Assembly: GCA_964555555.1 (NCBI GenBank)
Contig: CAZKSQ010000002.1
Coordinates: forward strand, 1-34,899
Direction of reading: 5' to 3'
Length of the DNA stretch: 34,899 bases
From: an uncultured Candidatus Saccharibacteria bacterium
GTDB lineage: Bacteria > Patescibacteriota > Minisyncoccia > Phycocordibacterales > PALSA-1337
Position numbers and translations under genes: made by a program. The notes beneath the pieces are model-generated. The model was not told the DNA's origin. It made no database searches and saw only the letters and a program-made list of their open reading frames with translations. This document shows, one piece after another, positions 8,949 through 33,774 of this stretch (positions are counted from its first letter, which is position 1; each line of letters begins with the position of its first letter).

Positions 8949-8982
8949 AAAAAAACCTCTGATGTCGATCATCAGAGGTTTT
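8949..8982. terminator. bidirectional rho-independent terminator between convergent genes
   Basis: 11-bp stem AACCTCTGATG / CATCAGAGGTT (8954-8964 / 8970-8980), with an A-run before and TTTT after. Confidence 0.7.
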
Positions 8983-8999: not shown

Positions 9000-10010
9000 T
9001 TACCACACTGTAGTCCTAAAGAAAAGACGAGGCAAGCCAGGATACAAGGGTATCGTCACCTCGGTTTCATCGGAGAAACCATCGATGGCTGTAGCCTGCG
9101 TCCAAGTGATCAAGTCTTCCGAAGATTCGATCACCGTGTAAGCGCTCTCCGCTCCGAATACAGTCAAACCTTTCGGTGAAAACTGGAACTTTGCGGAATT
9201 TGCGACTTCATCACCGTTTTGGGTATACACCTTCGTGACACCTCCAGCCTTGATGGTGAATCTGGCTGGCAGACTGTTGGTGGAATACCATTCATTGAAG
9301 AAGACAACGTACGGCGACGTGAATTCTTTTGGTACCGTTAAGTTGGCTGTCTTTCGGAGGACGGTACGCACGCTGTTTGTCCAAGTGAAGAGGTAAACAG
9401 TGCTATCATCAGGTTCATTGGCGAACCGATCAGAGCTTGTTTCTACTCTCACAGAGAAGCTTTCTAGGTCGCTGATCCTTAGGGGTGCCGCGGTGTACGA
9501 CAGTTCAAGGTTAGAAAGTCCAACAGTGGTCATTTCTGACAAATGATCGACCTTCCCGAACAGTACAAGAGCTGTTGCTGATATAGCTGCATTGTCCCCA
9601 TAAAGGAAGCCGACTGGAAAGTCGTAAGTCACCTTTGCCCCTTGATCGGTTAGATCGGAGAGGTCGACGTAAAGCTGCTCCTGGTAAACTGTGATGTTAT
9701 CAATATAATCTTGATACGATCCAAATTTGTTGAATTCGACAGGTGGAGTAAACGGTATGCCTGGATTTCCGGAGCTGTCGGTCCATGAAGCGGAAAACCC
9801 GCTAAATATCGTGACGTTCGTGTCTTTGCCTCCTGAAAAAATCCAGTTGAAGTAATTCGTCGTGCTGCCGACCATTTCAAGCCGGTCAGGCAACGGGTAG
9901 GTTATCGAGACCAAGTTGGCCGAGTTTTGCCCCTCCGCAGTAAACGTCACGGAGAGGGCAGTGAGGGCGATCGCGAAGATCGCCAGGAAACCGAAGTTAT
10001 GATTTTTCAT
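9000..10010 (-). CDS. secreted protein of unknown function with a C-terminal WTQ...FFR module
   Basis: Start taken at MKNHNFGFLAIFAIALTALSVTFTAEG (signal peptide), preceded by SD-like GAAAGGG. The C-terminus resembles that of the 19892-22462 protein. Confidence 0.75.
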   Translation of the reverse strand: MKNHNFGFLAIFAIALTALSVTFTAEGQNSANLVSITYPLPDRLEMVGSTTNYFNWIFSGGKDTNVTIFSGFSASWTDSSGNPGIPFTPPVEFNKFGSYQDYIDNITVYQEQLYVDLSDLTDQGAKVTYDFPVGFLYGDNAAISATALVLFGKVDHLSEMTTVGLSNLELSYTAAPLRISDLESFSVRVETSSDRFANEPDDSTVYLFTWTNSVRTVLRKTANLTVPKEFTSPYVVFFNEWYSTNSLPARFTIKAGGVTKVYTQNGDEVANSAKFQFSPKGLTVFGAESAYTVIESSEDLITWTQATAIDGFSDETEVTIPLYPGLPRLFFRTTVW

Positions 10011-10204
10011 CACAACCCTTTCTTTTTGCGTTTTGGCGGAGGACACGACAGTGCCCGCACACAAAACAGGTTAGTTGATTTGAAGCTTTGCCTCGTGTTT
10101 TCAACGAGCACACACTTCCTATCTACCGTCAAGCATAGCATAGGTTACGGGGTTTGTAAAGGGGGAGGTTATCAACAGGGTGGGGATAAGTAAACAGATT
10201 GGTA

Positions 10205-13494: not shown

Positions 13495-14727
13495 ATGGAT
13501 TCAAAAATCTCATCTTTTGTTTTGCCTAACGGCCTAACCGTGGTAAGCATTTATAAGCCATATAGCCCAAATGTCTCTTTTAGCCTTAGATTGATGGCTG
13601 GCAGCATATACGAAAAAAAAGATGAGATCGGTGTGGCGCATTTTTTGGAACATATCGTATTCGATGGCACAGAGAAGTATCCAGATGAAAAAAAGTTAGC
13701 CGAGCTTATCGATGAGCGCGGGGGATATCGGAATGGCATAACAAGCAGGGAAACTGTTGAATATGTCGTCAAGGTACTCAGAGAAGACGCGGATGTCGGA
13801 TTTGAGTATCTTTCCCAGATCGCCTCTTCGCCTTTGATGCGCGAAAATGACATAGAAAAACAGAAGAAGATTATTGAGCAGGAAATTTATCGATTCAAAT
13901 CTGATCCTATGACGCTCGCACCTAGATTGATATATTCTGCAATATTTCCCAATACTCGTTTAGAAGCACTTAGTTCTGGAGACGTAGAGGATATAGCAAA
14001 GATTTCAAGAGATTCTATTCACGGATATTTTTCCAAAACTCATGTCGCTAAAAACATGGTTTTGTGCGTAAGCGGAAACATTTCTGAAGAAGTCTTGCGC
14101 GGATCGGCAGAAAAATATTTTGTAAATATTAGCTCCGGGCATGAAATGGGCAAAATAGATATAGACGTGCCTATGAAGGATGGCCAAATTGTGTCGAAAG
14201 TTCCGGGATTAAAGCAGTCAACGTTGGCCATCGGCTACTCGTCTTTCCAGATTAGATCGGCCCATCGGTATGCAGCAGATCTAATATCGGCTATTCTTAC
14301 GAAAGGCAAGTCTTCAAGGTTGGTCTATGAAATAAGAGAAAAAAGGGCGATGGCATATGCAGTTAATAGCAGTAATTATTCCGGAAGAAACTTCGGTGCC
14401 TTTGTGGTGCAGGTTGGCTTGGCACAGGACAAGGTCCCAGAATGTCAAAGCATTATTTTGAATGAAATAAAAAGATTAAGTACAGAGACATTATCTAGCG
14501 CGGAATTAGCGAAGGCAATATCTTTCATCAAAGCAAACATGGCTTTTTCTTTTGAGAATTCTTTAGCAGAAGCCTCATATTATTCTGGATCTTGGTGCGC
14601 TACAGGCAATATCGTGTCTGTTGAAAAAGAAATTTCAAATTATGGAACGGTGAATCCATTGGAAATTCTAGAAACAGCGAAATTGTTGTTTTCCAAGAAA
14701 CCTGCAATATTGACTATTCTTGCCTAG
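13495..14727 (+). CDS. M16 (pitrilysin/insulinase) family zinc peptidase
   Basis: Inverted zinc motif HFLEH near the N-terminus. 410 aa with the two-lobe M16 length. Confidence 0.85.
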   Translation: MDSKISSFVLPNGLTVVSIYKPYSPNVSFSLRLMAGSIYEKKDEIGVAHFLEHIVFDGTEKYPDEKKLAELIDERGGYRNGITSRETVEYVVKVLREDADVGFEYLSQIASSPLMRENDIEKQKKIIEQEIYRFKSDPMTLAPRLIYSAIFPNTRLEALSSGDVEDIAKISRDSIHGYFSKTHVAKNMVLCVSGNISEEVLRGSAEKYFVNISSGHEMGKIDIDVPMKDGQIVSKVPGLKQSTLAIGYSSFQIRSAHRYAADLISAILTKGKSSRLVYEIREKRAMAYAVNSSNYSGRNFGAFVVQVGLAQDKVPECQSIILNEIKRLSTETLSSAELAKAISFIKANMAFSFENSLAEASYYSGSWCATGNIVSVEKEISNYGTVNPLEILETAKLLFSKKPAILTILA

Positions 14728-14743
14728 CTTGACTTTTTTCTAC

Positions 14744-14773
14744 TTGACATACCTAGGATTATGCTAGTAGACT
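14744..14773 (+). promoter_or_regulatory. candidate sigma-70 promoter of a short stand-alone transcription unit
   Basis: TTGACA (14744-14749), 18-nt spacer, TAGACT (14768-14773). Confidence 0.3.
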
Positions 14774-14861
14774 AATAATGCAGGTAACCTCAAATGAGGG
14801 AGAACGGACAGCTGTTTGACTGCTGTAGCTCGTAAAAACAAAAAAATCTAAGACAGATCTT

Positions 14862-14936
14862 ATGATTAAAATTCATCTAAATGGTGACGACGATGGTCCC
14901 GATCACGATGATTACGGTGACGAAAGTTCACCATAG
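14862..14936 (+). CDS. candidate 24-aa acidic micro-ORF (MIKIHLNGDDDGPDHDDYGDESSP)
   Basis: My own translation. ATG to TAG. It lies between the candidate promoter and a strong terminator. There is no SD, but most genes here lack one. It could equally be a non-coding sRNA. Confidence 0.25.
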   Translation: MIKIHLNGDDDGPDHDDYGDESSP

Positions 14937-14958
14937 TCTCGTTGCAATCAATAGTTGG

Positions 14959-14987
14959 GGGTTGGTAGAAATACCAGCCCTTTTTTT
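14959..14987 (+). terminator. strong rho-independent terminator
   Basis: GGGTTGGTA-gaaa-TACCAGCCC (9 bp including one GU, GNRA loop) followed by TTTTTTT. Confidence 0.75.
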
Positions 14988-14988
14988 A

Positions 14989-14997
14989 TGCTAAAAT
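14989..14997 (+). promoter_or_regulatory. extended -10 element, leaderless-type, for the SDR operon
   Basis: TGCTAAAAT ends 6 nt before ATG 15004 and abuts the terminator T-run. Confidence 0.45.
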
Positions 14998-15003
14998 CAT
15001 CCC

Positions 15004-15690
15004 ATGAAAGGCAAGAATATAGTCATTACCGGCGCTAGCCGCGGACTGGGCAAAGCGATGGCAGAAGTTGCTATGAAGCGCGGAGCAAAGGTCATGGCCT
15101 CCGCCAGAAGCGAAAAGGATCTGGAGGCACTGGCAAAAGAGATAGGGGCAGTTCCATTCAAGGCTGATGTGACCAAAGAAAAGGAAATGATCGCTTTGGC
15201 CAAGGCGGCCGTCAAAGAATTTGGTCATATAGACATCTGGATCAACAATGCCGGCGTGTGGTTGCCGCGAGGACCTATAGAAGATGCCGATATGGATAGG
15301 GCACATGAATTAATCGAGGTAAATCTTTTTGGCACTATGTATGGCACGCGTGCGATTTTGCCGTACTTCAAGGAAAAGGGAAGTGGAATTATTGTGAATG
15401 TGGTATCGACCGCGGCATTGGTGGGACGGCCGAATTCCTGCGTCTACTCTGCTAGCAAATGGGCGGCGCGAGGATTCACCGATTCTTTGCGAGAAGAGGT
15501 CAAGGCTATGGGTATCAAAGTAATTGGAATTTATCCTGGAGGAATAAAAACTGACCTTTTCAATGAGCAAAAGCCTTCGGAATATGACGACTTCATGGAT
15601 CCGTATGAGACAGCCGTGAAGATCTTGGATAATTTGGCAAAACAAGATCCCGATGTGGAGATGGTATTGAAGCGACCCGGACAGTCGTAA
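15004..15690 (+). CDS. short-chain dehydrogenase/reductase (SDR)
   Basis: TGASRGLG (TGxxxGxG), NNAG and YSASK (YxxxK). Confidence 0.9.
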   Translation: MKGKNIVITGASRGLGKAMAEVAMKRGAKVMASARSEKDLEALAKEIGAVPFKADVTKEKEMIALAKAAVKEFGHIDIWINNAGVWLPRGPIEDADMDRAHELIEVNLFGTMYGTRAILPYFKEKGSGIIVNVVSTAALVGRPNSCVYSASKWAARGFTDSLREEVKAMGIKVIGIYPGGIKTDLFNEQKPSEYDDFMDPYETAVKILDNLAKQDPDVEMVLKRPGQS

Positions 15691-15694
15691 TGCC

Positions 15695-15967
15695 TTGAAA
15701 AACCTGAATCAAATCAGAAAAAAGATCGACGGCATCGATGGCAATATCGTGAAGCTTATTGCCAAACGCTTTTCATACCTGCCTGCAATAACAAAATACA
15801 AGAAGGAGCTCGGTTTGCCATTGAAATGCGCCAAAAGGGAGCTTGAGATCTTGATTCGCTTGGAAAAGCAGGCAAAAGCTCTCAAAATCGAGCCTGATGC
15901 CATAAAAAGCATATTTATAGCTATTTTCAAGCAATCGCGCGCGATTCAGAAGGAATTGAAACCCTGA
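15695..15967 (+). CDS. chorismate mutase, AroQ class (or an isochorismate-pyruvate-lyase-like relative)
   Basis: 90 aa. LNQIRKKIDGIDGNIVKLIAKRF...KRELEIL pattern of the all-helical CM_2 fold. TTG start, 4 nt after the SDR stop. Confidence 0.7.
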   Translation: MKNLNQIRKKIDGIDGNIVKLIAKRFSYLPAITKYKKELGLPLKCAKRELEILIRLEKQAKALKIEPDAIKSIFIAIFKQSRAIQKELKP

Positions 15968-15975
15968 ATATTATG

Positions 15976-15984
15976 TGCCATAAT
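15976..15984 (+). promoter_or_regulatory. extended -10 element, leaderless-type (internal to the operon)
   Basis: TGCCATAAT ends 7 nt before ATG 15992. Confidence 0.4.
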
Positions 15985-15991
15985 AGAGAAA

Positions 15992-17491
15992 ATGAAACAT
16001 TTATCAGCCTCGGATTTTTTTGGCATCCTGAAAAATAAAAAGAGCGCCTATTGGGAAAAAGAACAGGCGGCTTATATGCTGGAACAGTTTCATGGTTGCG
16101 CAAAGCACATACCAGCGTACAAGGATTTTTTGCGAAAGAATGGGGTCAAGCCGGAAATGGTGAGGAGCTATAGCGAGCTCGATGACCTGCCGCCAGTCGG
16201 CAAGGATTCCTATCTGCGCAAATTCCCATTGGAAAAGCTCTGCTACGACGGAACCTTGAAGGAACAATCCCTGGTCTTTACATCTACGTCGGGCTCCACG
16301 GGAGCGCCTTTTTATTTCCCGCGGAATGGCATCTTGGACGAGCAGTCGTCGATGTGCCACGAAGCCTTTTTGCGCAATTCTAAGCTGGATTCCAAGAAGT
16401 CCACCCTAGTTCTAGTTTGCTTTGGCATGGGCGTCTGGATCGGCGGCGTCATCACCTATCAGGCGTTCAAAAAGATCACGGAGCGCGGCTGGAACCTGTC
16501 TATCCTGACGCCTGGCGTCAATAAAAAAGAGATCTTCGCGGCCATGAAGAATCTGGCGCCGCACTATGACCAAATCATCCTAGCCGGCTATCCGCCATTC
16601 ATGCGCGATGTCATAGAAGAAGGAGAGGCTGAAGGCATACGCTGGAAAAGCTTCGATATGCGGCTCATCTTTGCCGCGGAAGCATTCTCCGAGGATTTTC
16701 GCGAGTATCTGATGAAAAAAACGGGCATCAAAGAGCCTTACCGCCATACTATGAATATCTATGGCAGTGCCGATCTGGGCACGATGGCGACGGAGACTCC
16801 GCTTGCCATCTTGGTCCGCAGGCTGGCGCTCAAGAAACCCAAGCTCTACAGAAAGCTTTTCAAGGAAGCGCACCGCTTGCCGACTTTGGCGCAATTCAAT
16901 CCGCATTTCATAAATTTCGAGGAGATCGACGGGCATATCTATATCACTGGCAACAATATCTTGCCCTTGGTGCGCTATGAGATCGGCGACAATGGCGGCG
17001 TGAGGACTTACGACGGCGTCGCGGAAATATTCAAGTCGGAGGGTTTCAATCTAGAAAAGGAAATAAGAAAAGCTGGCATAAAGGATACGGTCACAGAATT
17101 GCCTTTCGTATATGTCTACGAGCGGAGCGATCTCTCTGTGAAGCTTTATGGCGCCATCATATATCCGGAGCATGTGAAATATGGACTGGAGAGGTCGGCG
17201 CGCCTGCAAAAATATCTTACTGGCAAATTCACGCTCTTTACCAAGTATGACAAGGACCATGGCGAATATCTGGAATTGAACCTGGAATTACGTCCGGATA
17301 CCAAGGAGAACAAAAAATTAGCGAAAGAAGTCATAAAATGTGTTTCTGCCAGTTTGGCGGAAAAGAGCGCCGAGCACAAGAACAACTTCGACCTGCTGGG
17401 CAATAAAGTCCTGCCGCGCGTGGTCTTCTGGCCGCATGGGCACCCGGAGCACTTCCAGACAGGGATCAAGCAGAAGTGGGTGAAGAGATAG
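15992..17491 (+). CDS. adenylate-forming enzyme, phenylacetate-CoA ligase / CapK / F390-synthetase-like family
   Basis: 499 aa. AMP-binding P-loop-like TSTSGSTGAPFYFP. Overall layout resembles PaaK. Substrate unknown. Confidence 0.7.
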   Translation: MKHLSASDFFGILKNKKSAYWEKEQAAYMLEQFHGCAKHIPAYKDFLRKNGVKPEMVRSYSELDDLPPVGKDSYLRKFPLEKLCYDGTLKEQSLVFTSTSGSTGAPFYFPRNGILDEQSSMCHEAFLRNSKLDSKKSTLVLVCFGMGVWIGGVITYQAFKKITERGWNLSILTPGVNKKEIFAAMKNLAPHYDQIILAGYPPFMRDVIEEGEAEGIRWKSFDMRLIFAAEAFSEDFREYLMKKTGIKEPYRHTMNIYGSADLGTMATETPLAILVRRLALKKPKLYRKLFKEAHRLPTLAQFNPHFINFEEIDGHIYITGNNILPLVRYEIGDNGGVRTYDGVAEIFKSEGFNLEKEIRKAGIKDTVTELPFVYVYERSDLSVKLYGAIIYPEHVKYGLERSARLQKYLTGKFTLFTKYDKDHGEYLELNLELRPDTKENKKLAKEVIKCVSASLAEKSAEHKNNFDLLGNKVLPRVVFWPHGHPEHFQTGIKQKWVKR

Positions 17492-17531
17492 GAAAGTTGT
17501 ATAATACCGGCATACAAATTAACTGCCAAAT

Positions 17532-18716
17532 ATGGAAAAGAACAAGCGAAATATAAAGAAAATCGGCGCTGTGAAGGTGGGACATAAGCCCATTTTATTG
17601 GATTTGGGCAAAAAAGCGGATCAAAAAAAGCTCGATAAATTATTCTCTGACAAAAAGATCCAGCGCGTCTCTGACGATTATCGCGAGCAACTCTTGGAAC
17701 TATTCGGCGTGAAGAATCCGAGTCAGGTATACGCTCCAGAATTCAAGGCCAAGTTCGAGAAACACTACAAAGAGCTGGAAAAGAAAACGCCTTTTATCGA
17801 GCAGGGCAACTGGGTTTACTTCCCTTGGAGTTCGACGCTAGTCCACATCTTGCCTGAAGAAGACTTTTGGCTGGTAAGGACCGCGAGGAATAAGAATCTG
17901 ATCAACAATGAGGAGCAGGAGAAGTTTTATAATTCAACCATTGGGATTGGCGGACTTTCTGTCGGCTCGAGTGTCGCTTTTGCTATCGTTCTCCAAGGCG
18001 GCGCAAAACATTTGAAACTGGCAGACATGGACCGCTTGGCGCTTTCCAATACCAACAGGATATTGATGGGAGTAGACAATCTGGGCGCACTGAAAGTGGA
18101 AATGGCGGCCAGGCGCATTTATGAGATCAACCCATACGCCGAGATTGAAATATTCCCTGAAGGCTTGAACAAAGGGAATATGGACAAATTCTTCAAAGGC
18201 CTTGATGTCGTAGTCGATGAGCTCGATAATCTTGCGGTCAAATACCTGATCCGCGAACATGCTAAAAAGAATAAGTTGCCAGTCGTCATGGCTGCAGATA
18301 ACGGTGACAATGCCGTAGTAGATGTCGAGCGGTATGATCTCGAACCTAATACGCCTTTCTTTCACGGACGCATGGGCGAAGTTTCATTCGAAATGCTCTC
18401 CAAGCTCGACAAGTTCGGCATAGGCAAGATGATAACCAAGCACGTAGGGACGGAGAATGTTACAGAAAAGATGCAGCAGTCGCTTCTTGAAATGGGCAAG
18501 ACCATCGTCTCCTGGCCGCAACTCGGCGGCGCGGCTCTCATAAACGGCGCGGCGGTGGCTTATTGCATCAGAAAGATCTTGAACGGCCAAGAATTGGAAA
18601 AGAACCGGTCGCTCATCTCGTTGGATGAGAAGCTCATACCGAGCTATAACAGCAAAGAGGAAGTAGAGAAGCGCCAGAAGATCGCGGACTCATTCAAGAA
18701 GATTTTTGGCCTATAA
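17532..18716 (+). CDS. ThiF/MoeB/E1-like adenylyltransferase (Rv1355c-family N-terminal module)
   Basis: Rossmann GIGGLSVGSSVA followed by LADMDRLALSNTNR. The N-terminal WVYFPWSSTLVHILPEEDFWLVRTARNKNLI segment matches, from memory, the Rv1355c/MoeY family. Confidence 0.75.
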   Translation: MEKNKRNIKKIGAVKVGHKPILLDLGKKADQKKLDKLFSDKKIQRVSDDYREQLLELFGVKNPSQVYAPEFKAKFEKHYKELEKKTPFIEQGNWVYFPWSSTLVHILPEEDFWLVRTARNKNLINNEEQEKFYNSTIGIGGLSVGSSVAFAIVLQGGAKHLKLADMDRLALSNTNRILMGVDNLGALKVEMAARRIYEINPYAEIEIFPEGLNKGNMDKFFKGLDVVVDELDNLAVKYLIREHAKKNKLPVVMAADNGDNAVVDVERYDLEPNTPFFHGRMGEVSFEMLSKLDKFGIGKMITKHVGTENVTEKMQQSLLEMGKTIVSWPQLGGAALINGAAVAYCIRKILNGQELEKNRSLISLDEKLIPSYNSKEEVEKRQKIADSFKKIFGL

Positions 18717-18740
18717 TATTTATACACCTTTATCAATCTC

Positions 18741-19796
18741 GTGAAAGACGACATAGAAAAAATAATAACCGATGGCATATATGCTCCTTCCGGCGAGAAT
18801 TGCCAGCCGTGGCGATTCGTCGTGAAGGGCAATGTTATTGAAGTTTTTAATCTTCCCGAGCTTGATAAATCTTTATACAACTACAAGCAAAAAGGTTCAT
18901 ACGTCGCTCACGGCGCGCTCATCGAGAACATAGTCATAAGCGCATCTCGGAGGGGCTATTCATCATCCGTGCAAATATTCCCTAGAGCTGAAGAGAATCT
19001 CATCTCGGCGATTACGCTTACGAAAGCAGAAGCCAAGAATGAGCCGCTTTTTCCATTCGTAGTAAAAAGGCATACCAATCGCAAAGATCACAAGCAGAAG
19101 AAGCTCAACACCGAACAAAAGAATGCACTGACTAGCGCCGCCAAGGAAGGGAAGCTGGGAGAGCTGACTATTATCGACGACAAAGTTTCCATGGATAAGC
19201 TCGGCAAAGCATTGGCGGTGAACGAGCAGGTGATATTCGAGAATAAAAAGCTGCATGACTTCTTTTACGAGCACATTCTTTGGAAGGAGGATGACCAATA
19301 TAAGGCTGGAGGTTTTTACATCAAGACTCTGGAATTCCTGCCGCACCAGCTGAAAGGCGTCAAGCTATTCAAGGCTTGGCCTATTCTTAAATTGCTGAAT
19401 AAGATCGGAAAAGTCTCTCGCGTCATCGCCAAGGAAAATAGCGAGAAATATGCCAAGTCCGGCGCGTTGGGAATCATTACCGTGAATGGAAACGCGAACA
19501 AAGATTACGTTAATGCAGGCAGGGTCGCCGAACGAGTCTGGCTCACAGCGACCAAGCTTGGAATAAGTGTGCACCCTTGCACCGGCGTGCTCTACTTCAT
19601 GGAAAATATAAGAGACCACAATGAAAAGGAGTTTTCGCTAGAGCACCAAGATGCCATCAGACGTGCATATGCGGACATAATAAAGACTTTTAAGGTATCC
19701 GGAAAAACAACACCCATGCTTTTCCGCCTAGGCTTCGCCGAAGAGGCGAGCGCCAAGGCGATGAGGATGAATCCCGAAATTAAATATTTGACGTAA
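18741..19796 (+). CDS. double-domain nitroreductase-fold (FMN) protein
   Basis: 351 aa. N-terminal YAPSGENCQPWRF nitroreductase signature. The length fits two fused nitroreductase halves (Acg-like). GTG start. Confidence 0.75.
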   Translation: MKDDIEKIITDGIYAPSGENCQPWRFVVKGNVIEVFNLPELDKSLYNYKQKGSYVAHGALIENIVISASRRGYSSSVQIFPRAEENLISAITLTKAEAKNEPLFPFVVKRHTNRKDHKQKKLNTEQKNALTSAAKEGKLGELTIIDDKVSMDKLGKALAVNEQVIFENKKLHDFFYEHILWKEDDQYKAGGFYIKTLEFLPHQLKGVKLFKAWPILKLLNKIGKVSRVIAKENSEKYAKSGALGIITVNGNANKDYVNAGRVAERVWLTATKLGISVHPCTGVLYFMENIRDHNEKEFSLEHQDAIRRAYADIIKTFKVSGKTTPMLFRLGFAEEASAKAMRMNPEIKYLT

Positions 19797-23388: not shown

Positions 23389-25038
23389 ATGGAAAACACT
23401 TCACCTGAGACGCAAGCACTCTTATCAAAAGAGCCTGATAATCTGTTGCAAAAGGGTATTTCTACGTGGAAATTCAAAATAATAAAGTGTACAGGATGGA
23501 TGGCAATAGCTATTGCATGTTTTAAAATAGCATATGATTCATATTGGGTCGCGGTTGGAATCGATTATCTATATAAAGGAATATTGGACGCATATCAACC
23601 GGGGTTTGCGATAACCATTGTGGTATATGCAATATCTTTCGTGTACATTGTCCTTGGCAAGAGAGTGACCCATCCAAGAGACATAAATTTGCGGATACAT
23701 ATTCGCATACTTCTGATTCTGTCACTTGTTATAGGTATATACGAAGTTATACGGCCAAACTCTTTTGGTTACCTCCTGTTGTTCTTGGCTATATCTCTTA
23801 TGATTTCAGATTATATCGTAGGTTCCCTTAGAAAATCAGAAGAATATAACGGTCATTTAACGACTTCTGCATATAGGATTAACAAAAAAGGATGGGTAAT
23901 TATATTTGTCTTTACAGCGATTTTAGTTGCTATTATGCCTGCATTAGAAAAGAAAGTTTCTCCAGTCATCGTCTGGAAGAGCTATCAGGATACCGGTTGG
24001 GGCTTTCAATTGTCATATCCGTCGCAATTTCGTCTAGTGAGCCAAGATGACAATCAAAACGGTCCGTTGCATTATTTTATTCCACAGAAGACATATGCAG
24101 AATCTGGTTACGTTGGCAAATTACTTGAAATCGCAGATGTTGATGGCACTTCAACATTACGGGGTTACATGGAGGTAACGATTCTGCCGATTCAGCCAAA
24201 AAGTCTTGAAGTATTAGATGGAGAATTGCGTGCAGATGTTGCTTCAAGCTCCGTATCATATCAATTGAAGGGAATATCGACCGCACTAAATTATGTCACT
24301 ATCGAAGATAGAAATCTTCCAGCTATCACATACACAATGACAAAAGATGGAACAAATAAACAGCTTACTTATATTTACTATTTTATTCCACCGTACACGA
24401 TTTTTGGAAAGCCGCAGCCGTCAAAGCTGTTAAGGATTGATTATACCCCGAGCGATAGCGATATACTTAAACAGATAGTTTCAACGATGAAATTAATTCC
24501 AATCATACCAACCGATGACTCTTTATATTATAGTGTTAAAGATAACAAGGATAGTTTCTGGTGTGACCGGATAAAGGATGGAGACCTCAAAAGAAACTGT
24601 TACATTGCAGTTCGCGGTCATCCAATTATCGATTATTATCCGGTTGATTTTTCAGCTACCGTAGGAAAAGGCGGAAAAGTTCATGTGAGTAGTTCTGATA
24701 TAACTCTGTCAGCATCTAAACCGGACAATGCTACAACAGGCGTGGCGTGGATAGCGATTCCGGTGACAGAAAATCAGACACCTTGGGAGTTGATAAATTT
24801 TGATGCAGCGTTTACCAATGGAGTAAAAGCACAGGGACTGCTTACGGTTTTTTGGGATACTCATTCTATAGGTACGGAAGATGGGCGTCTCGACATGTCT
24901 TATGTTGGATTTGGTCCTTTTGATGTTGGCAGTAGCACTCCAGGAAGCGTCCATGTATTAGGCTTTAGGCTTGATACATTCGCTCCAGGAAACGCCTCTG
25001 TAACTATATCTAAGATATCGGGTGAATTAGTCCATTAA
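23389..25038 (+). CDS. membrane-anchored protein with extracytoplasmic region and a C-terminal module shared with the HAF-lipase protein
   Basis: About 5 N-terminal TM helices. The C-terminal INFDAAFTNGVKAQGLLTVFWDTHSIGTEDGR...VHVLGFRLDTF aligns to VSFDAEFTDTNSAQGLLSVYWDTNTIGTLDER...LHMLGFRLDPF. Confidence 0.8.
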   Translation: MENTSPETQALLSKEPDNLLQKGISTWKFKIIKCTGWMAIAIACFKIAYDSYWVAVGIDYLYKGILDAYQPGFAITIVVYAISFVYIVLGKRVTHPRDINLRIHIRILLILSLVIGIYEVIRPNSFGYLLLFLAISLMISDYIVGSLRKSEEYNGHLTTSAYRINKKGWVIIFVFTAILVAIMPALEKKVSPVIVWKSYQDTGWGFQLSYPSQFRLVSQDDNQNGPLHYFIPQKTYAESGYVGKLLEIADVDGTSTLRGYMEVTILPIQPKSLEVLDGELRADVASSSVSYQLKGISTALNYVTIEDRNLPAITYTMTKDGTNKQLTYIYYFIPPYTIFGKPQPSKLLRIDYTPSDSDILKQIVSTMKLIPIIPTDDSLYYSVKDNKDSFWCDRIKDGDLKRNCYIAVRGHPIIDYYPVDFSATVGKGGKVHVSSSDITLSASKPDNATTGVAWIAIPVTENQTPWELINFDAAFTNGVKAQGLLTVFWDTHSIGTEDGRLDMSYVGFGPFDVGSSTPGSVHVLGFRLDTFAPGNASVTISKISGELVH

Positions 25039-25048
25039 TACTTTTTTC

Positions 25049-25960
25049 ATGTCCCGCATCCAAGAAATCAACTCTGCCATAGAAAAACTCAAGGCATTTC
25101 GCGCGGACCCGGATTATGGCGACCGCCAATATGCCATAGACGAGAACATCATCTTCCTGGAAGCTATAAAGTCGTTGCCGCGATATGCGAAATGGCTCAT
25201 AACCAGGGCTAAAAAGATAGATGGCAAAAGGCTTTTGGAGCTGACGGATTTTCCGGTGGAGGAGTGGGATGTAAGCATGCACAAAAGACTTATTCAGATC
25301 GAAAGAAACAAGCACATCGGACTCGGCAAACCATTAGTTGATGGCATATTCAACCACATCAAACAGCAAAAAGGTCCATTGAAATTGGTTAATCTGGGTG
25401 CTGGCGGGATGGAAGTCGATAGGCAAGTCATAGAGAAACTTATCGGCGACAGATACAATGTTCCGATTATATTCATTGGCGTAGATAAGTCTCCGATAAC
25501 CAATAAGATTGCTTATGAAAACCTCAAGACACTCGGCGCTTTGGTTAAGATTGTTCAAATGGAGCAGCTGACCAAAGAAAGGCTCGATGAAATAGCAAAG
25601 AACAATCTTGGCATAACGGTAATTCTCTGCAAAAACGACATATTCAAGCTGGATAAAGAATTTCCGGCGCAGACATTCGATGTGATATATCATTCGCTTT
25701 TCAAGCACCACATCAAAATGGAAATGCAGAAAAACCTGGATGCTATAATGGAGAAGATCGCGAAGAAGCGGCTGGAGTACGATGGCTTCAGAACCTGGCC
25801 AGTCGTGATCCCGCAAAGCATAGCTGCTTGGAAATACCCGATCTTCTTGGGCGGCACGATATTTTCGGTTTTGAGGTACGAGACGGTCGATGAAATAAGC
25901 AGATTGCCTGGCAAAAAGACTTTCTATAAGAAGACCGGGCATTGCTTGCGCGAGTTCTGA
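25049..25960 (+). CDS. putative SAM-dependent methyltransferase-fold protein
   Basis: 303 aa. LVNLGAGGMEVD (motif-I-like), then IGVDKS. The assignment is weak. Confidence 0.5.
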   Translation: MSRIQEINSAIEKLKAFRADPDYGDRQYAIDENIIFLEAIKSLPRYAKWLITRAKKIDGKRLLELTDFPVEEWDVSMHKRLIQIERNKHIGLGKPLVDGIFNHIKQQKGPLKLVNLGAGGMEVDRQVIEKLIGDRYNVPIIFIGVDKSPITNKIAYENLKTLGALVKIVQMEQLTKERLDEIAKNNLGITVILCKNDIFKLDKEFPAQTFDVIYHSLFKHHIKMEMQKNLDAIMEKIAKKRLEYDGFRTWPVVIPQSIAAWKYPIFLGGTIFSVLRYETVDEISRLPGKKTFYKKTGHCLREF

Positions 25961-28180: not shown

Positions 28181-29392
28181 ATGTTTAACCGCCGAATATA
28201 CCTCGACTACGCTTCTTTGACGCCGATCGACAAAAGGGTCATGAAAGAGATGAAAAAATACTCGAGTTCGGCTTATGCCAATGCTTCTTCGTGGTACCGC
28301 GAAGGCGTAGCGGCGAAGAATGCTCTCGATGCGGCGAGGAAAAATGTCGCCGGTTTTCTCCGTGCGCATCAGGATGAAGTGACTTTTACTTCGGGCGGCA
28401 CAGAAGGGAACAATATGGCAATGATCGGCAGTATCGAACACTTGCATGAGCAGGGCATCGAGTACGAAAAGATGCATGTTATCATAAGCGCCATAGAACA
28501 TTCTTCTGTCCGCGAATGCGCGAATTACTTGAATGACAAGGGCGTAATCGTTGACGTTGTGCCGGTAAAGCAAGATGGAATAGTCGACTTGGATGCTTTG
28601 AAACAAAAGATCAGACCGAATACTGCCCTGGTCTCTATTATGACTGTCAATAATGAGATCGGAACCGTACAACCTATTCGAGAAATAGCTAAGGTTATTA
28701 GGCATGCCCACACTAAGATTAAGAGTGGTGTCGAATCGACTCCGTCAGCTGACGGATTCAATTTTCAATCTGAAATCAAATACCCGCTTTTTCATACTGA
28801 CGCCGCCCAAGGCCTCTATGAAGACTTGAATGTAGAAAGGCTGGGCGTGGATTTCCTGACGCTCGATGGCTCGAAGCTATACGGACCGCGCGGCATTGGC
28901 GCGCTATATCACAAGAAGAATATTCCTTTGACGCCTCTCCTTTATGGCGGCGGACAGGAAAATGGCTTGCGATCTGGCACGGAGAATATCCCCGCGATCA
29001 TGGGATTTTCCAAAGCGCTGGAATTGGTAAATGCGACAAGAGAATCGGAAGAGAGGAGGATCGCGGAGCTGCGCAAATACTTCATCGCTCGATTGAAGTC
29101 ACTAGACAATAGCATCACGGTGAATGGGAATACCGCCGATTCGTCGCCGCATATTCTGAACGTCTCTATTCCAGGAATTGATAGCGAATTCTTTGTCTTG
29201 CAACTGGATGCGAAGGGAATCGCCTGCTCCACGAAGAGCTCATGCCTGCGTGACAACGATGAGTCATATGTCCTGAAAGCGATAGGTGCCAACAGCAAGA
29301 ATTCGGTGAGGTTTTCTTTTGGGAGAGGGACGAGTATATGGAACTTGGCAAAAACTATAAGGGTTATAGGAAAGCTTATTGAAAGCCGGTAA
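28181..29392 (+). CDS. cysteine desulfurase (class V aminotransferase, NifS/IscS-like)
   Basis: HTDAAQG. The PLP-lysine context LDGSKLYGPRGIGALY. The catalytic-Cys loop GIACSTKSSC. Start at ATG 28181 (MFNRRIYLDYAS). Confidence 0.85.
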   Translation: MFNRRIYLDYASLTPIDKRVMKEMKKYSSSAYANASSWYREGVAAKNALDAARKNVAGFLRAHQDEVTFTSGGTEGNNMAMIGSIEHLHEQGIEYEKMHVIISAIEHSSVRECANYLNDKGVIVDVVPVKQDGIVDLDALKQKIRPNTALVSIMTVNNEIGTVQPIREIAKVIRHAHTKIKSGVESTPSADGFNFQSEIKYPLFHTDAAQGLYEDLNVERLGVDFLTLDGSKLYGPRGIGALYHKKNIPLTPLLYGGGQENGLRSGTENIPAIMGFSKALELVNATRESEERRIAELRKYFIARLKSLDNSITVNGNTADSSPHILNVSIPGIDSEFFVLQLDAKGIACSTKSSCLRDNDESYVLKAIGANSKNSVRFSFGRGTSIWNLAKTIRVIGKLIESR

Positions 29393-29411: not shown

Positions 29412-29530
29412 GCAAGCAAAGACAAAAAGGCGCTATTATTTTTTCTAAAAATCCGTGTTCAGATCAGGAGCTACACCCCACTGCTTCTCATTTTTAGAAA
29501 AAATAATAGCGCCTTTTTGTCTTTGCTTGC
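29412..29530. repeat. long-hairpin element A (41-bp perfect stem, 37-nt loop)
   Basis: 29412-29452 is the exact reverse complement of 29490-29530. Loop: CCGTGTTCAGATCAGGAGCTACACCCCACTGCTTCTC. Confidence 0.95.
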
Positions 29531-29533
29531 GAA

Positions 29534-30421
29534 TTACGCGATCTTGTATCGGCCGTTATATTCGGTGATAGTGCCAAGGAGTTCCAATTCGGAAACAATA
29601 GTATTGAACTTCGAAGATGATAACCCAGTCTTGGTCATCAGGTCCGTTGAAGATAGAGGCTCGATTTTCAAATAATCCACTATTGCTTTCTGTTGCGGAG
29701 AAAGAGCCATTTCTGCAAAATTCGGCAAGGCCTGATTCATGCCATCTTTTCTGATTACGGGAAAACCGAGTGCTTGAAGTATATCCGCCGAAGATGCTAC
29801 AGGCGTCGCGCCTCGGCGCAAAAGCATGTTGGGTCCATAAGAAAGCTCTGCAAATATGGATCCTGGAATCGTAAGGATGTCTCTTCCGAAAGTTGCCGCA
29901 TAATCTGCGGTGATCAGCGTTCCAGAACCTTGCGCAGCTTCGACTATCAGCGTTGCATGGCTGGTGCCGGCCATGAGGCGATTCCTGGTCGGAAATGTCC
30001 AATCTGCGCCTGGCTGATCGAGCTTGAAAGGCGAGATCAGTGTGCCTCCAGAATCCACGATCTTTTTTGCCAGTTGCCTGTGGCATGCCGGATAGATCGC
30101 TTCGTGAGAAAGCCCGGAACCTGGAAAGCTAAGAGTGGTCAACTCTGCATCTAAAGCAGCTTCGTGCGAAATCGAATCTATGCCTAATGCTAGACCTGAC
30201 ACAATAACTATGGGGTATCCTGCAAGTCCGGAAATAAGCTTTATGCAAGCATCGCGGCCATACTGGCTATTCAGTCTGGAGCCGACAACGCACAAAAACT
30301 TGTTGTCATTGGACGGCAAGTCGCCAGCGATATGCATCTCATCAGGCAAATTTGGGATTTGTTGAAGCAAAAAGGGATATTGGTTTTTGTTTATTTTTCT
30401 AGTCGTCATTTTTGTAATCAT
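29534..30421 (-). CDS. dprA: DNA processing/protecting protein DprA (Smf)
   Basis: VSGLALGIDSISHEAAL and EAAQGSGTLITADYAATFGRDILTIPGSIF, plus a C-terminal winged-helix-like tail. Confidence 0.9.
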   Translation of the reverse strand: MITKMTTRKINKNQYPFLLQQIPNLPDEMHIAGDLPSNDNKFLCVVGSRLNSQYGRDACIKLISGLAGYPIVIVSGLALGIDSISHEAALDAELTTLSFPGSGLSHEAIYPACHRQLAKKIVDSGGTLISPFKLDQPGADWTFPTRNRLMAGTSHATLIVEAAQGSGTLITADYAATFGRDILTIPGSIFAELSYGPNMLLRRGATPVASSADILQALGFPVIRKDGMNQALPNFAEMALSPQQKAIVDYLKIEPLSSTDLMTKTGLSSSKFNTIVSELELLGTITEYNGRYKIA

Positions 30422-30431
30422 GTTATTAATT

Positions 30432-30558
30432 TAAAATCGGTGCACAAAAGAGCACTTTTCATTTTATTTGGAAAATCCGTGTCCGTACCAAGAAACGCTT
30501 GCCACTGCTTCTCATTTTCCAAATAAAATGAAAAGTGCTCTTTTGTGCACCGATTTTA
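30432..30558. repeat. long-hairpin element B (45-bp perfect stem, 37-nt loop)
   Basis: 30432-30476 is the exact reverse complement of 30514-30558. Loop: CCGTGTCCGTACCAAGAAACGCTTGCCACTGCTTCTC. Confidence 0.95.
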
Positions 30559-30588
30559 CCACCTAACTGATGCAAATGAAAATAATTG

Positions 30589-30597
30589 TGCTAAACT
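30589..30597 (+). promoter_or_regulatory. extended -10 element, leaderless-type, for serS
   Basis: TGCTAAACT ends 6 nt before ATG 30604. Confidence 0.45.
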
Positions 30598-30603
30598 AGA
30601 GCC

Positions 30604-31866
30604 ATGTTGGATATCAAATTCATCAGGGAAAACAAGGATCTGGTCGCGCTCGCGGCCAAAAAGAAGCATATAGACTTCAAGGTGGAGGAGCTGATTGTGC
30701 TGGATGACAAGCGCAAGGCTCTCATGTCGAACGCGGAAAAGAAGCGCGCGGCGCAGAATGCGGCCAGCGAGAAAATATCGGCAGGGAAGGATGCGGATGA
30801 GAAAGCCAAGCTCATCGCAGAAATGAAGGTCGTCAAAGCCGATCTGGAAAGCGAAGAGGAAGCGCTGAAAGTTGTGATGAAAGATTGGCAGAGCCAGATG
30901 CTCCGAGTGCCGAACATTCCGGACATGTCGGTGCCGGATGGCAACAGCGACGCTGATAATAAAGAGATCAAGGCTTGGGGCGAAAAACCGAATTTTGCTT
31001 TTGAGCCCAAGGATCACGCGACGATCATGACAGCGCTCAAAATGCTCGATCTGGAACGTGGCGCAAAAGTCCACGGCTTTCGTGGATATTTTTTGACCGG
31101 CGATGGCGTGAAGCTCTGCTTTGCGATATGGAACTATGCCTTGGAATTCTTCTCGGGCAGGGGATTCATCCCGGTACTGCCTCCTATAGTCGTCCGCGGT
31201 TTGAATCTATACGGCTCGGGCTATTTGCCTCAAGGCGAAGAAGATCTCTACAAGACGCAGGACGGGGACTATCTCGCTGGCACCGCCGAAGTGCCTATCA
31301 TGGGACTTCATGCTGATGAGGTTTTGAATGCAAATCAGCTGCCGATGAAGTACCTAGGCTTTTCTCCGTGCTATCGCCGTGAAGCGGGCGCGCACGGCAA
31401 GGACGTCCATGGACTCATTCGCGTGAATGAATTTTATAAATTCGAACAAGTGATCCTCTGCGAGGCGAACCATGAGACCTCGGTAAAATTCCATGAGGAA
31501 CTCAACAGGAATACCGAGGAATTCATCGAATCGTTGAGCATCCCATATCATACGGTTGTGAATTGCGGCGCGGACCTGGGTTTGGGCCAAGTGAAAAAAT
31601 ATGATATCGAGCTGTGGGTGCCAAAAGAGGGTAAGTATAGGGAGATTGGCTCGGCTTCATACTTCCATGATTTTCAATGTCGGCGCCTGAATATCCGCTA
31701 TCGCGACGAGGCGGGAGTGATGCGCTATGCGCATTCGATGAATGCTACAGCGATACCTACGCCGCGCATTTTGGTTTCTTTGGTTGAGAACTTCCAGCAA
31801 GCAGATGGTTCTATACGGATCCCGCCAGTACTGGTCAAATATTTTGGCAAGGAAACCATAAAATAG
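30604..31866 (+). CDS. serS: serine--tRNA ligase
   Basis: MLDIKFIRENKDLV N-terminal coiled-coil arm and class II core (...FSPCYRREAG..., GSASYFHDFQCRRL). 420 aa. Confidence 0.95.
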   Translation: MLDIKFIRENKDLVALAAKKKHIDFKVEELIVLDDKRKALMSNAEKKRAAQNAASEKISAGKDADEKAKLIAEMKVVKADLESEEEALKVVMKDWQSQMLRVPNIPDMSVPDGNSDADNKEIKAWGEKPNFAFEPKDHATIMTALKMLDLERGAKVHGFRGYFLTGDGVKLCFAIWNYALEFFSGRGFIPVLPPIVVRGLNLYGSGYLPQGEEDLYKTQDGDYLAGTAEVPIMGLHADEVLNANQLPMKYLGFSPCYRREAGAHGKDVHGLIRVNEFYKFEQVILCEANHETSVKFHEELNRNTEEFIESLSIPYHTVVNCGADLGLGQVKKYDIELWVPKEGKYREIGSASYFHDFQCRRLNIRYRDEAGVMRYAHSMNATAIPTPRILVSLVENFQQADGSIRIPPVLVKYFGKETIK

Positions 31867-33734: not shown

Positions 33735-33774
33735 GGTCCCGAGAGCAAGGCAGCGCTGCCTTGCTCTCGGGACC
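33735..33774. repeat. 40-nt perfect GC-rich palindrome
   Basis: GGTCCCGAGAGCAAGGCAGC | GCTGCCTTGCTCTCGGGACC. It starts 8 nt after the carboxypeptidase stop. No T-run follows. Confidence 0.9.

Follow-up and report, generated by a model that had tools for sequence, protein, structure and literature searches.

The dprA gene of an uncultured Candidatus Saccharibacteria bacterium is bracketed by two long DNA hairpins, element A and element B, which were examined in a stretch of 34,899 nucleotides (contig CAZKSQ010000002.1 of assembly GCA_964555555.1; this whole stretch is referred to as the window). Both elements are perfect palindromes around a 37-nt spacer, and they form a lineage-specific pair at the predicted boundaries of the dprA transcript. 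The structure is real, unusual and evolutionarily persistent. The two elements appear to be neither a new RNA gene nor a widespread mobile repeat. The explanation favoured here, which is held tentatively, is that they may be a 5′-leader hairpin and a bidirectional 3′ hairpin that have been enlarged and homogenized by template switching during DNA replication.

Architecture of the hairpins flanking dprA

Element A consists of a left arm at 29412..29452 (41 nt), a spacer or loop at 29453..29489 on the plus strand (37 nt) and a right arm at 29490..29530 (41 nt), which lies 3 nt from the dprA stop codon. The left arm is 100% complementary to 29490-29530 and is laid out on the plus strand as an A-rich tract, a GC knot (GGCGC) and an AT-rich inner stem ending in AAAAT. 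Element B consists of a dprA-side arm at 30432..30476 (45 nt), which lies 10 nt from the dprA ATG, a plus-strand spacer at 30477..30513 (37 nt) and a promoter-side arm at 30514..30558 (45 nt), which is 100% complementary to 30432-30476. Neither the 41-bp stem of A nor the 45-bp stem of B contains a mismatch or a bulged base. The spacer reads CCGTGT-TCAGATCAGGAGCTACACC-CCACTGCTTCTC in A and CCGTGT-CCGTACCAAGAAACGCTTG-CCACTGCTTCTC in B. The common plus-strand pattern, CCGTGT-N19-CCACTGCTTCTC closed by AAAAT/ATTTT, has two matches in the window against 0.00 expected from shuffled sequence. The spacer ends (6 and 12 nt) are identical in the two elements, and the central 19 nt agree at the level of random identity (7/19). 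When folded as single-stranded DNA, A and B reach energies of -44.9 and -50.8 kcal/mol (z = -12.5 and z = -14.7), and none of 200 shuffled sequences was as stable. The spacers of A and B showed no significant internal fold on either strand. A preliminary description of this DNA, made from its letters alone, had reported the coordinates, the perfect 41-bp and 45-bp stems, the 37-nt loops and the shared loop ends, and all of these were reproduced.

The arms of the two elements are only partly alike. When they are anchored at the loop, 44% of their positions are identical, compared with approximately 30% expected from composition, and BLAST aligns A with B at 71% identity across 103 nt, which comprise the inner arms and the loop. 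Positional homology between the outer arms is weak, and the outer arm ends differ between the copies (GCAAGC/GCTTGC in A, TAAAAT/ATTTTA in B). It had been claimed that every arm difference between the copies is compensated in the partner arm. The pairing is indeed perfect, but the phrase says no more than that A and B are two different perfect palindromes. Both elements were found again in independent assemblies (ENA, JGI, NCBI, Logan), and their presence there rules out a library adapter or an assembly artefact as their source.

The bracketed gene dprA (29534..30421, minus strand) encodes a protein of 295 aa with the Pfam domains PF02481 and PF17782. It is convergent with a NifS-like class-V aminotransferase gene (28181..29392, plus strand; PF00266, a 403-aa gene call in the public contig L009) and divergent from serS (30604..31866, plus strand), which was identified from orthologous gene calls. 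The distances of A from the dprA stop codon and of B from the dprA ATG were confirmed, as were the identities of DprA, by Pfam, and of SerS and the NifS-like aminotransferase, by orthologous gene calls. Element A takes up most of the 141-nt gap between the aminotransferase gene and dprA. The transcription of dprA opposes both neighbours and also the strand favoured by GC skew.

Hairpins at dprA in related species

The dprA loci of ten related proteins (62-83% identity; source name Patescibacteria) were scanned with our own hairpin finder. The related sequence covers about 10 kb on each side of dprA and includes no complete genomes. Related elements are present at the same two dprA positions. 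In at least 8 related species, and in every readable member of one Patescibacteria subclade, dprA is adjoined by long and mostly perfect inverted repeats, which in most of these species occur upstream as well as downstream. The locus L011 (DprA 83% identical to that of the window) has an upstream hairpin of 43 bp with a loop of 37 nt and a downstream hairpin of 41 bp with a loop of 38 nt. In L037 (73%), the upstream hairpin has 45 bp and a loop of 28 nt, and the downstream position lies outside the contig. In L035 (63%), 16 bp upstream and 32 bp downstream each enclose a loop of 34 nt, and L025/26 (69%) has 31/31 bp with a loop of 63 nt upstream and 39/39 bp with a loop of 56 nt downstream. 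The other loci with long hairpins are the following: L023 (69%) has no upstream hairpin and 29/29 bp with a loop of 78 nt downstream; L038 (64%) has only a small upstream hairpin and 36/36 bp with a loop of 87 nt downstream; L020 (65%) has 16 bp with a loop of 1 nt upstream and 26/26 bp with a loop of 107 nt downstream; and L027 (65%), where no upstream hairpin was found, has 23 bp with a loop of 130 nt downstream. No long hairpin occurs at dprA in L036 or in the outgroup L032, in which topA follows dprA co-directionally. The arm sequences are unrelated between species, and the spacers span 1-130 nt. A neighbour-joining tree of DprA places the forms with short spacers (28-38 nt) in the window's own clade.

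Of the 9 species whose next gene is convergent with dprA, 8 have a long hairpin downstream, and there is none where the next gene is co-directional (L032). This distribution is consistent with a terminator role for A. The downstream neighbour of dprA is the aminotransferase gene in some species and rmuC in others; since the neighbour varies, the hairpin goes with dprA. On the other side, dprA adjoins serS in 9 of the 11 sampled species; in the remaining two, the upstream flank could not be read. DprA and SerS have diverged to the same degree between the window and L011 (83% identity each). The constant serS neighbour and the equal divergence lend no support to the earlier suggestion that dprA is a cassette. 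A further suggestion, that the core AAAAT-CCGTGT-N19-CCACTGCTTCTC-ATTTT is the signature of a family, also failed. The core is confined to the two copies of this genome, and the loops of the nearest relative, L011, which are orthologous to those of the window, are about 51% identical to them by direct loop comparison.

Other hairpins were observed in the related sequence. A complete hairpin at L020 10798-10924 (42-bp arms with 39 positions paired, 43-nt loop) lies inside the NifS-like aminotransferase gene. It keeps the reading frame and adds about 42 residues to a variable surface loop of the enzyme. A decayed hairpin that still folds strongly (z about -4) occupies the same aminotransferase site in L023, at about 1700-1850. 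Nested elements were seen at L025 6466-6664, L035 1581-1752, L020 10010-10168 and L027 1922-2097. They have a perfect outer stem of 23-29 bp and an interior of 107-141 nt, which is a degenerate palindrome, with a second, inner hairpin. The nested hairpins of L025 and L035 lie between dus and a PBP gene, and the L025 dus/PBP element is 65% identical over 130 nt to the dprA-downstream element of L027, at a different locus. In L038, the rbfA-topA intergenic region of about 1 kb (14260-15300) has several interlocking inverted repeats with the unit GAGAGGACTCGA in common and with arms of 12-16 bp at 14667-14973. Public short-read contigs (L009, L010, L013-L019, L024) often end in or beside the dprA hairpins. 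Contig breaks at inverted repeats are expected for technical reasons. These breaks leave many contigs with little beyond dprA, which is an assembly and binning problem in Patescibacteria.

Predicted promoters and transcript boundaries

A consensus scan places a predicted dprA promoter at 30553..30582 on the minus strand, with TTTTCA, an 18-nt spacer and a TG-extended TAAAAT. The predicted -10 hexamer, TAAAAT on the minus strand, is identical with the outermost 6 bp of stem B (30553-30558). A TG-extended -10 (TGnTAnnAT) upstream of dprA is kept in nine species, where it abuts or overlaps the hairpin. The -10 hexamer itself forms the outermost 4-6 bp of the stem in the window, L011 and L037, and the far end of the stem complements the species' own -10 (TAAAAT/ATTTTA in the window, GAAT/ATTC in L011 and TAGCCT/AGGCTA in L037). 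The paired -10 segment would be absent from dprA RNA because it is untranscribed from that predicted promoter. Wherever an upstream hairpin occurs, it begins at the -10 box and reaches to within 7-18 nt of the start codon.

The divergent gene serS has a TG-extended -10 of its own (TGCTAAACT), which lies 6 nt before the ATG and outside the hairpin, and is conserved (window 30586-30606 and the orthologous sites). This position suggests that the serS mRNA may be leaderless or nearly so.

A terminator scan called neither A nor B; its sole matches there were mini-hairpins of 5 bp followed by a T-rich tail, one in each B arm. Each arm of A is an A-tract, a GC knot and a T-tract, and the element has a 24-bp inner stem around its 37-nt loop. 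The view that A and B are not ordinary terminators, as stated in the preliminary description, is half right. A sits exactly where a bidirectional terminator would sit and has arms of the corresponding layout, and B lies in the predicted dprA leader from the -10 onward.

Maintenance and divergence of the stems

Four-fold degenerate sites of the window and L011 are 27% identical in dprA and 40% identical in serS, against 30% expected, which amounts to random identity. Because unconstrained DNA has been fully randomized between these two genomes and both stems persist, the pairing must be actively maintained. Window B and L011 B align colinearly, with a promoter flank that is about 85% identical and arms that are about 51% identical. 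Along these arms, 18 pairs have been altered on both sides with the pairing intact. A count of pair types over 17 stems (n=560) gave 547 Watson-Crick pairs, 5 G·T, 3 A·C and 5 others. Thus, G·T is no more frequent in the stems than other mismatches. In terminators of Bacillus cereus, G·U accounts for about 4% of pairs and is the dominant compensatory intermediate (PMC5381666).

Differences between closely related strains are clustered in the hairpins. The window differs from L009 at one position in 6479 nt and from L010 at one position in 1527 nt, in both cases in an arm of A; these variants lie at 29440 (left arm) and 29513 (right arm). Among the L011-type strains, 5 of the 6 variable sites are inside the hairpins, which make up 5.7% of the sequence (P = 3e-6). 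One hairpin mismatch allele is common to two independent samples; therefore, sequencing error cannot account for all of the variants. In ordinary terminators, the stems vary less than the loops (PMC5381666), which is the opposite of what is found in the dprA hairpins.

The two hairpins of one genome also resemble each other. In four genomes, they are each other's best match, with identities of 71%, 77%, 69% and 82%, and the orthologous pair of window B and L011 B, at 61% identity, is below these within-genome pairs. The two spacers of a genome point the same way in the window and L025 and in opposite ways in L011 and L035. L010, which is the same strain from another sample (ERZ27245399), has loop B the other way round from the window and L009, on a contig that stops within this loop. 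Five L011-type contigs for each loop show a single orientation for that loop. Template switching is known to create, perfect or repair, extend and invert inverted repeats (PMC8794818; PMC13100816).

Proposed origin by template switching

According to the reading that we tentatively favour, the dprA transcript would start within stem B and carry a 5′-terminal stem-loop, and the unpaired remainder of the distal arm of B would precede the AUG. Element A would act as a bidirectional terminator or a 3′-end stabilizer between the convergent dprA and aminotransferase genes. We infer these leader and terminator roles, together with the transcription start site, from position and from consensus matches. 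The length and perfection of the stems would come from template switching between the arms (quasi-palindrome correction) and not from pair-by-pair compensatory selection on RNA. Switching would transfer a change from one arm to the other and lengthen the arms into the flanks. Occasionally, it would invert the spacer or carry the inner part of one hairpin over to the second hairpin, at a distance of 1 kb. The expected outcome is arms that change fast and nevertheless stay Watson-Crick perfect, and spacers that are more alike within a genome than between orthologues. It may be speculated that dprA, being a lone gene opposed to both neighbours and to the GC skew, favours fork stalling and template switching at its ends.

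We infer the mechanism from footprints that are typical of it. The strict Watson-Crick pairing, the pairing of the -10 box, the clustering of variants in the arms, the resemblance between the two copies and the changes in spacer orientation point to copying at the DNA level over selection on RNA alone. All five are on record as products of template switching at inverted repeats (PMC8794818; PMC13100816). The preliminary description had proposed that either selection or a copying mechanism acts on the hairpin itself. The hairpin is indeed the maintained unit, and for the same five reasons copying is the better of the two options and the part of that interpretation with the best support.

Several points weigh against this explanation. 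The promoter, the start site and the terminator activity are consensus matches only, and the case for template switching is one of footprints. A generic mutational process alone does not explain why the hairpins are concentrated at dprA, and copying leaves unexplained the identical spacer ends (6 and 12 nt) beside a random centre of 19 nt. The spacer is also constant at 34-38 nt in the nearest species. Together, the concentration at dprA, the spacer ends and the spacer length suggest a sequence-specific constraint or partner. Element A would be a poor canonical intrinsic terminator, with its 37-nt loop and no trailing T-run, and several relatives are without T-tracts. Inverted repeats are places where sequencing errors and fold-back chimeras accumulate. 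Part of the strain variation could be due to sequencing error, and the flipped loop of L010 could be a fold-back chimera of the library or an ambiguous assembly path. Finally, the specificity for dprA is proven for the 35-kb window only, the relatives being covered for about 10 kb on each side of the gene.

Alternative explanations

The first alternative is that the hairpins are regulatory elements of RNA, which is a possible but rather unlikely explanation. In this case, B would act in the dprA 5′ UTR, as an attenuator of the leader, a gate for translation or a target of RNase III, and A as a terminator in both directions or, again, an RNase III target. The reading as a double-stranded RNA cut by RNase III, which was raised in the preliminary description, is likewise possible. 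The Watson-Crick strictness would result from transcription of both strands, since what is a G·U pair in one transcript becomes an A·C mismatch in the opposite one, and the shared loop ends would bind one co-evolving trans-acting protein or small RNA. The hairpins lie exactly at the predicted mRNA boundaries, and the A-tract, GC knot and T-tract of the arms, like the small terminator-like hairpin in each B arm, fit such a role. The upstream loop has one orientation relative to dprA in the window, L011 and L035 (L037 is not callable), and loop ends that are the same within a genome and differ between species are as expected from co-evolution with a trans-acting factor. Bidirectional terminators are also known to be under extra constraint (PMC5381666). 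However, the pairing takes in the predicted -10 box, which is not transcribed from that promoter; L011 and L035 have the downstream loop in flipped orientation, and L010 has loop B flipped; and polymorphism is highest in the stems, where the greatest conservation would be expected. Wobble pairs are not in excess, and the loops have no conserved internal fold. In addition, a related element is translated in frame in L020, where termination or RNase III cleavage would be harmful.

No match to a described RNA family was found. Across the whole window, Rfam gave 0 matches at gathering thresholds. A search at relaxed thresholds returned nothing beyond a generic long-hairpin likeness to miRNA precursors of plants and animals, which scored 44-48 bits where 74-245 would be required. 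This agrees with the preliminary description, in which the motif was not recognized. The literature on hairpins at dprA or palindromic repeats in Patescibacteria yielded no description of elements of the A/B type.

A second alternative, to which only a low probability can be given, is a non-autonomous mobile foldback element of the type of a MITE (a miniature transposable element with inverted repeats) or a Rickettsia palindromic element (RPE), with the entire hairpin as the unit that moves, which would insert at intergenic or tolerant coding sites, and a hairpin intermediate that would re-copy the arms. It is kept alive by the coding-site elements of L020 and L023, the first being a complete in-frame insertion of about 42 codons in the NifS-like gene and the second a decayed one at the same place, and by the resemblance between the L025 dus/PBP element and the dprA-downstream element of L027. 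The absence of the upstream hairpin in L023 is also consistent with gain and loss. The distribution of the elements is against it. Only two copies exist in the 35-kb contig, and a covariance model built from six members and searched against 178 kb of related Patescibacteria sequence matched at dprA flanks only; most matches were its own training sequences, and those outside the training set were only the upstream elements of L035 and L025/26. The positions are orthologous across species and not scattered, and the arms differ between copies of the same genome. Target-site duplications are absent, the flanks of A and B (TCTTCT|..|GAATTA and TTAATT|..|CCACCT) having no direct repeat. Among the proteins of the window, searches of Pfam and NCBIfam found no transposase, RAYT, HUH enzyme, tnpA/tnpB, integrase or recombinase. 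The idea of a dispersed family like repetitive extragenic palindromes arranged as REPINs or like MITEs, which had been raised for these hairpins, was not borne out by these results.

The core motif was likewise confined in wider collections. The exact motif was not found with stems in viral contigs or in one genome per GTDB species. In viral contigs, CCGTGT-N15-23-CCACTGCTTCTC gave 7 matches, none with flanking stems, and in the set of one genome per GTDB species, the motif with AT/AT flanks gave 1 match, a Luteolibacter coding sequence with a 3-bp "stem"; all of these were regarded as chance matches. A metagenome scan, which was queried with the DprA protein, returned a single relevant locus, one already included here.

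Two bolder readings may be named, and they are together quite unlikely. One is a dedicated DNA flip-flop of Patescibacteria that would switch dprA without a classical invertase. Here, the 37-bp spacers would invert between the 45-bp perfect repeats, and opposed spacers would make the 5′ and 3′ loops of the mRNA complementary (12 + 6 nt). The other is a new self-perpetuating "palindrome drive" DNA that would home to gene boundaries.

A site-specific DNA switch or cassette, in which the spacers would be recombination sites, for an invertible flip-flop or for the excision or inversion of dprA, and competence would be phase variable, is very unlikely. Spacers do occur in both orientations between species, and possibly within one strain (L010), and their conserved ends around a variable centre are like the core site of a recombinase. 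Many public contigs break exactly at the hairpins, and with one spacer flipped, the two loops of a dprA transcript would be complementary over 12 + 6 nt. Nevertheless, no recombinase gene lies nearby, and a 37-bp segment is far too short for the synapsis of a normal invertase. The orientation of dprA and its serS neighbour are constant wherever the upstream flank is readable, the five L011-type contigs for each loop agree in orientation, and the contig breaks have their technical explanation.

Paired operators, at which a repressor would bind both sites and loop the DNA, the palindromes having been seeded by an operator overlapping -10/+1, are highly improbable. In their favour, the upstream element of L020 is operator-like, being a plain 33-bp palindrome 1 nt past the -10 box, a motif is common to both sites within each genome and inverted-repeat expansion at transcription-factor sites is documented (PMC13100816). 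Against them, the conserved spacer ends by themselves form no palindrome, the 41-45 bp of the arms far exceed any operator, no regulator gene adjoins dprA and the upstream element is absent in L023.

Five further candidates were rejected. A promoter inside the loop was considered because of GTATAAT at the stem-loop junction in L035 and L025; it is not conserved in the window. A ComK-type A4-N5-T4 box has the wrong spacing, and ComK belongs to another lineage. DNA uptake sequences do not agree with just 2 copies in 35 kb. A T-box upstream of serS has no Rfam match, and the predicted serS promoter lies between the hairpin and the ATG. A longer palindrome decaying from its centre would leave the equal 37-nt spacers with identical ends unexplained.

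Other features of the window

Apart from A and B, the only hairpins of the window with a stem of at least 12 bp are at 8952-8982 and 33735-33774, both at convergent junctions. The first is a textbook bidirectional terminator, AAAACCTCTGATG-TCGAT-CATCAGAGGTTTT, between convergent genes and serves as the "normal" hairpin of this genome. The second is a perfect palindrome of 40 bp (20 + 20 bp, GGTCCCGAGAGCAAGGCAGC/GCTGCCTTGCTCTCGGGACC) without a spacer, which begins 8 nt past the stop codon of a Peptidase_S11 (PBP) gene.

The region 15695-19796 contains four co-directional genes that encode a chorismate mutase, a 499-aa protein with weak similarity to PaaK-like acyl-CoA ligases, a ThiF-family E1-like protein and a nitroreductase-like protein. 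This run of genes may be a cluster for small molecules or peptide modification. A Fic/DOC-family protein is encoded at 1385-2317. The protein encoded at 6939-8909 has 656 aa, and its domains are of the dockerin and bacterial Ig-like (Big_7) types. Several ORFs at 9000-10064 and 23389-25960 are without a family match, and no tRNA or tmRNA genes were found in the window.

Significance of the dprA hairpins

If the proposed origin is true, the dprA hairpins would be an unusually clear natural case in which DNA copying builds and keeps very long perfect hairpins at gene boundaries. They would also illustrate that "perfect covariation" in a hairpin is not by itself proof of a functional RNA. The streamlined genomes of Patescibacteria tolerate palindromes of 120 nt in the long term at dprA, a gene that handles incoming single-stranded DNA, and these hairpins explain the assembly breaks on both sides of dprA in public data. 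If the inversion of the spacer is real and frequent, it could be a simple new way to vary the expression of a competence gene.

Comparison with known systems

Intrinsic (rho-independent) terminators have a short GC-rich stem, a loop of 3-8 nt and a T-run that follows directly, features that A and B lack. Bidirectional intrinsic terminators resemble A in lying between convergent genes and in having a hairpin followed by a U-rich tract on both strands. They differ in size, with a stem of about 5-14 bp and a loop of 3-8 nt compared with 41 bp and 37 nt in A, which has no T-run after its full stem. Their stems are conserved, whereas those of the dprA hairpins are polymorphic, and B occupies a divergent promoter region, in which no termination is expected.

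Among repeats, RPEs and MITEs are similar as hairpin-forming elements of about 100-150 bp, and the in-frame hairpin of L020 in a housekeeping gene adds to this likeness. In contrast to the two copies per 35 kb with locus-specific arms found here, those elements are multi-copy and have a conserved sequence with terminal repeats. The conserved terminal inverted repeats and target-site duplications of MITEs and foldback elements are missing from A and B. Repetitive extragenic palindromes are likewise extragenic, and a REPIN forms a long hairpin. REPINs, however, are highly repeated, conserved in sequence and linked to a RAYT, whereas A and B are two copies in 34.9 kb with no RAYT among the window proteins. 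The attC sites of integrons have RYYYAAC/GTTRRRY outer ends, extrahelical bases and an integrase with a cassette array; the outer ends of A and B read GCAAGC/GCTTGC and TAAAAT/ATTTTA, their stems are unbulged, the window encodes no integrase and the order serS-dprA holds in the 9 of 11 sampled species with a readable upstream flank. The ends of IS200/IS605 elements and PATEs are short, imperfect subterminal hairpins associated with tnpA/tnpB, in contrast to perfect stems of 41-45 bp in a window without tnpA/tnpB.

Invertons and the flip/flop termini of parvoviruses and poxviruses share with A and B a unique segment between perfect inverted repeats; as in those systems, the segment of the dprA hairpins is seen in both orientations, here between species and possibly within one strain (L010). 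Invertons comprise hundreds of bp with a promoter and an invertase, whereas the dprA hairpins have an internal spacer of 37 bp in a window without a recombinase. Flip/flop termini are found at the ends of linear replicons, whereas the dprA spacers are internal.

The last comparison is with template-switched inverted repeats (Mönttinen & Löytynoja 2022, PMC8794818; Rozenfeld et al. 2026, PMC13100816), which, like A and B, have perfect stems and multi-base "compensated" differences. As in the dprA hairpins, their arms reach functional sequence (here, the predicted -10 box), their spacers can invert in place and their arm variants cluster. The stems in those studies are short (2-10 bp in rRNA and modest expansions in yeast promoters) compared with arms of 30-45 bp here. 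Unlike the cases described there, the dprA arms persist at the same two boundaries through saturating divergence, with copies that are alike within a genome.

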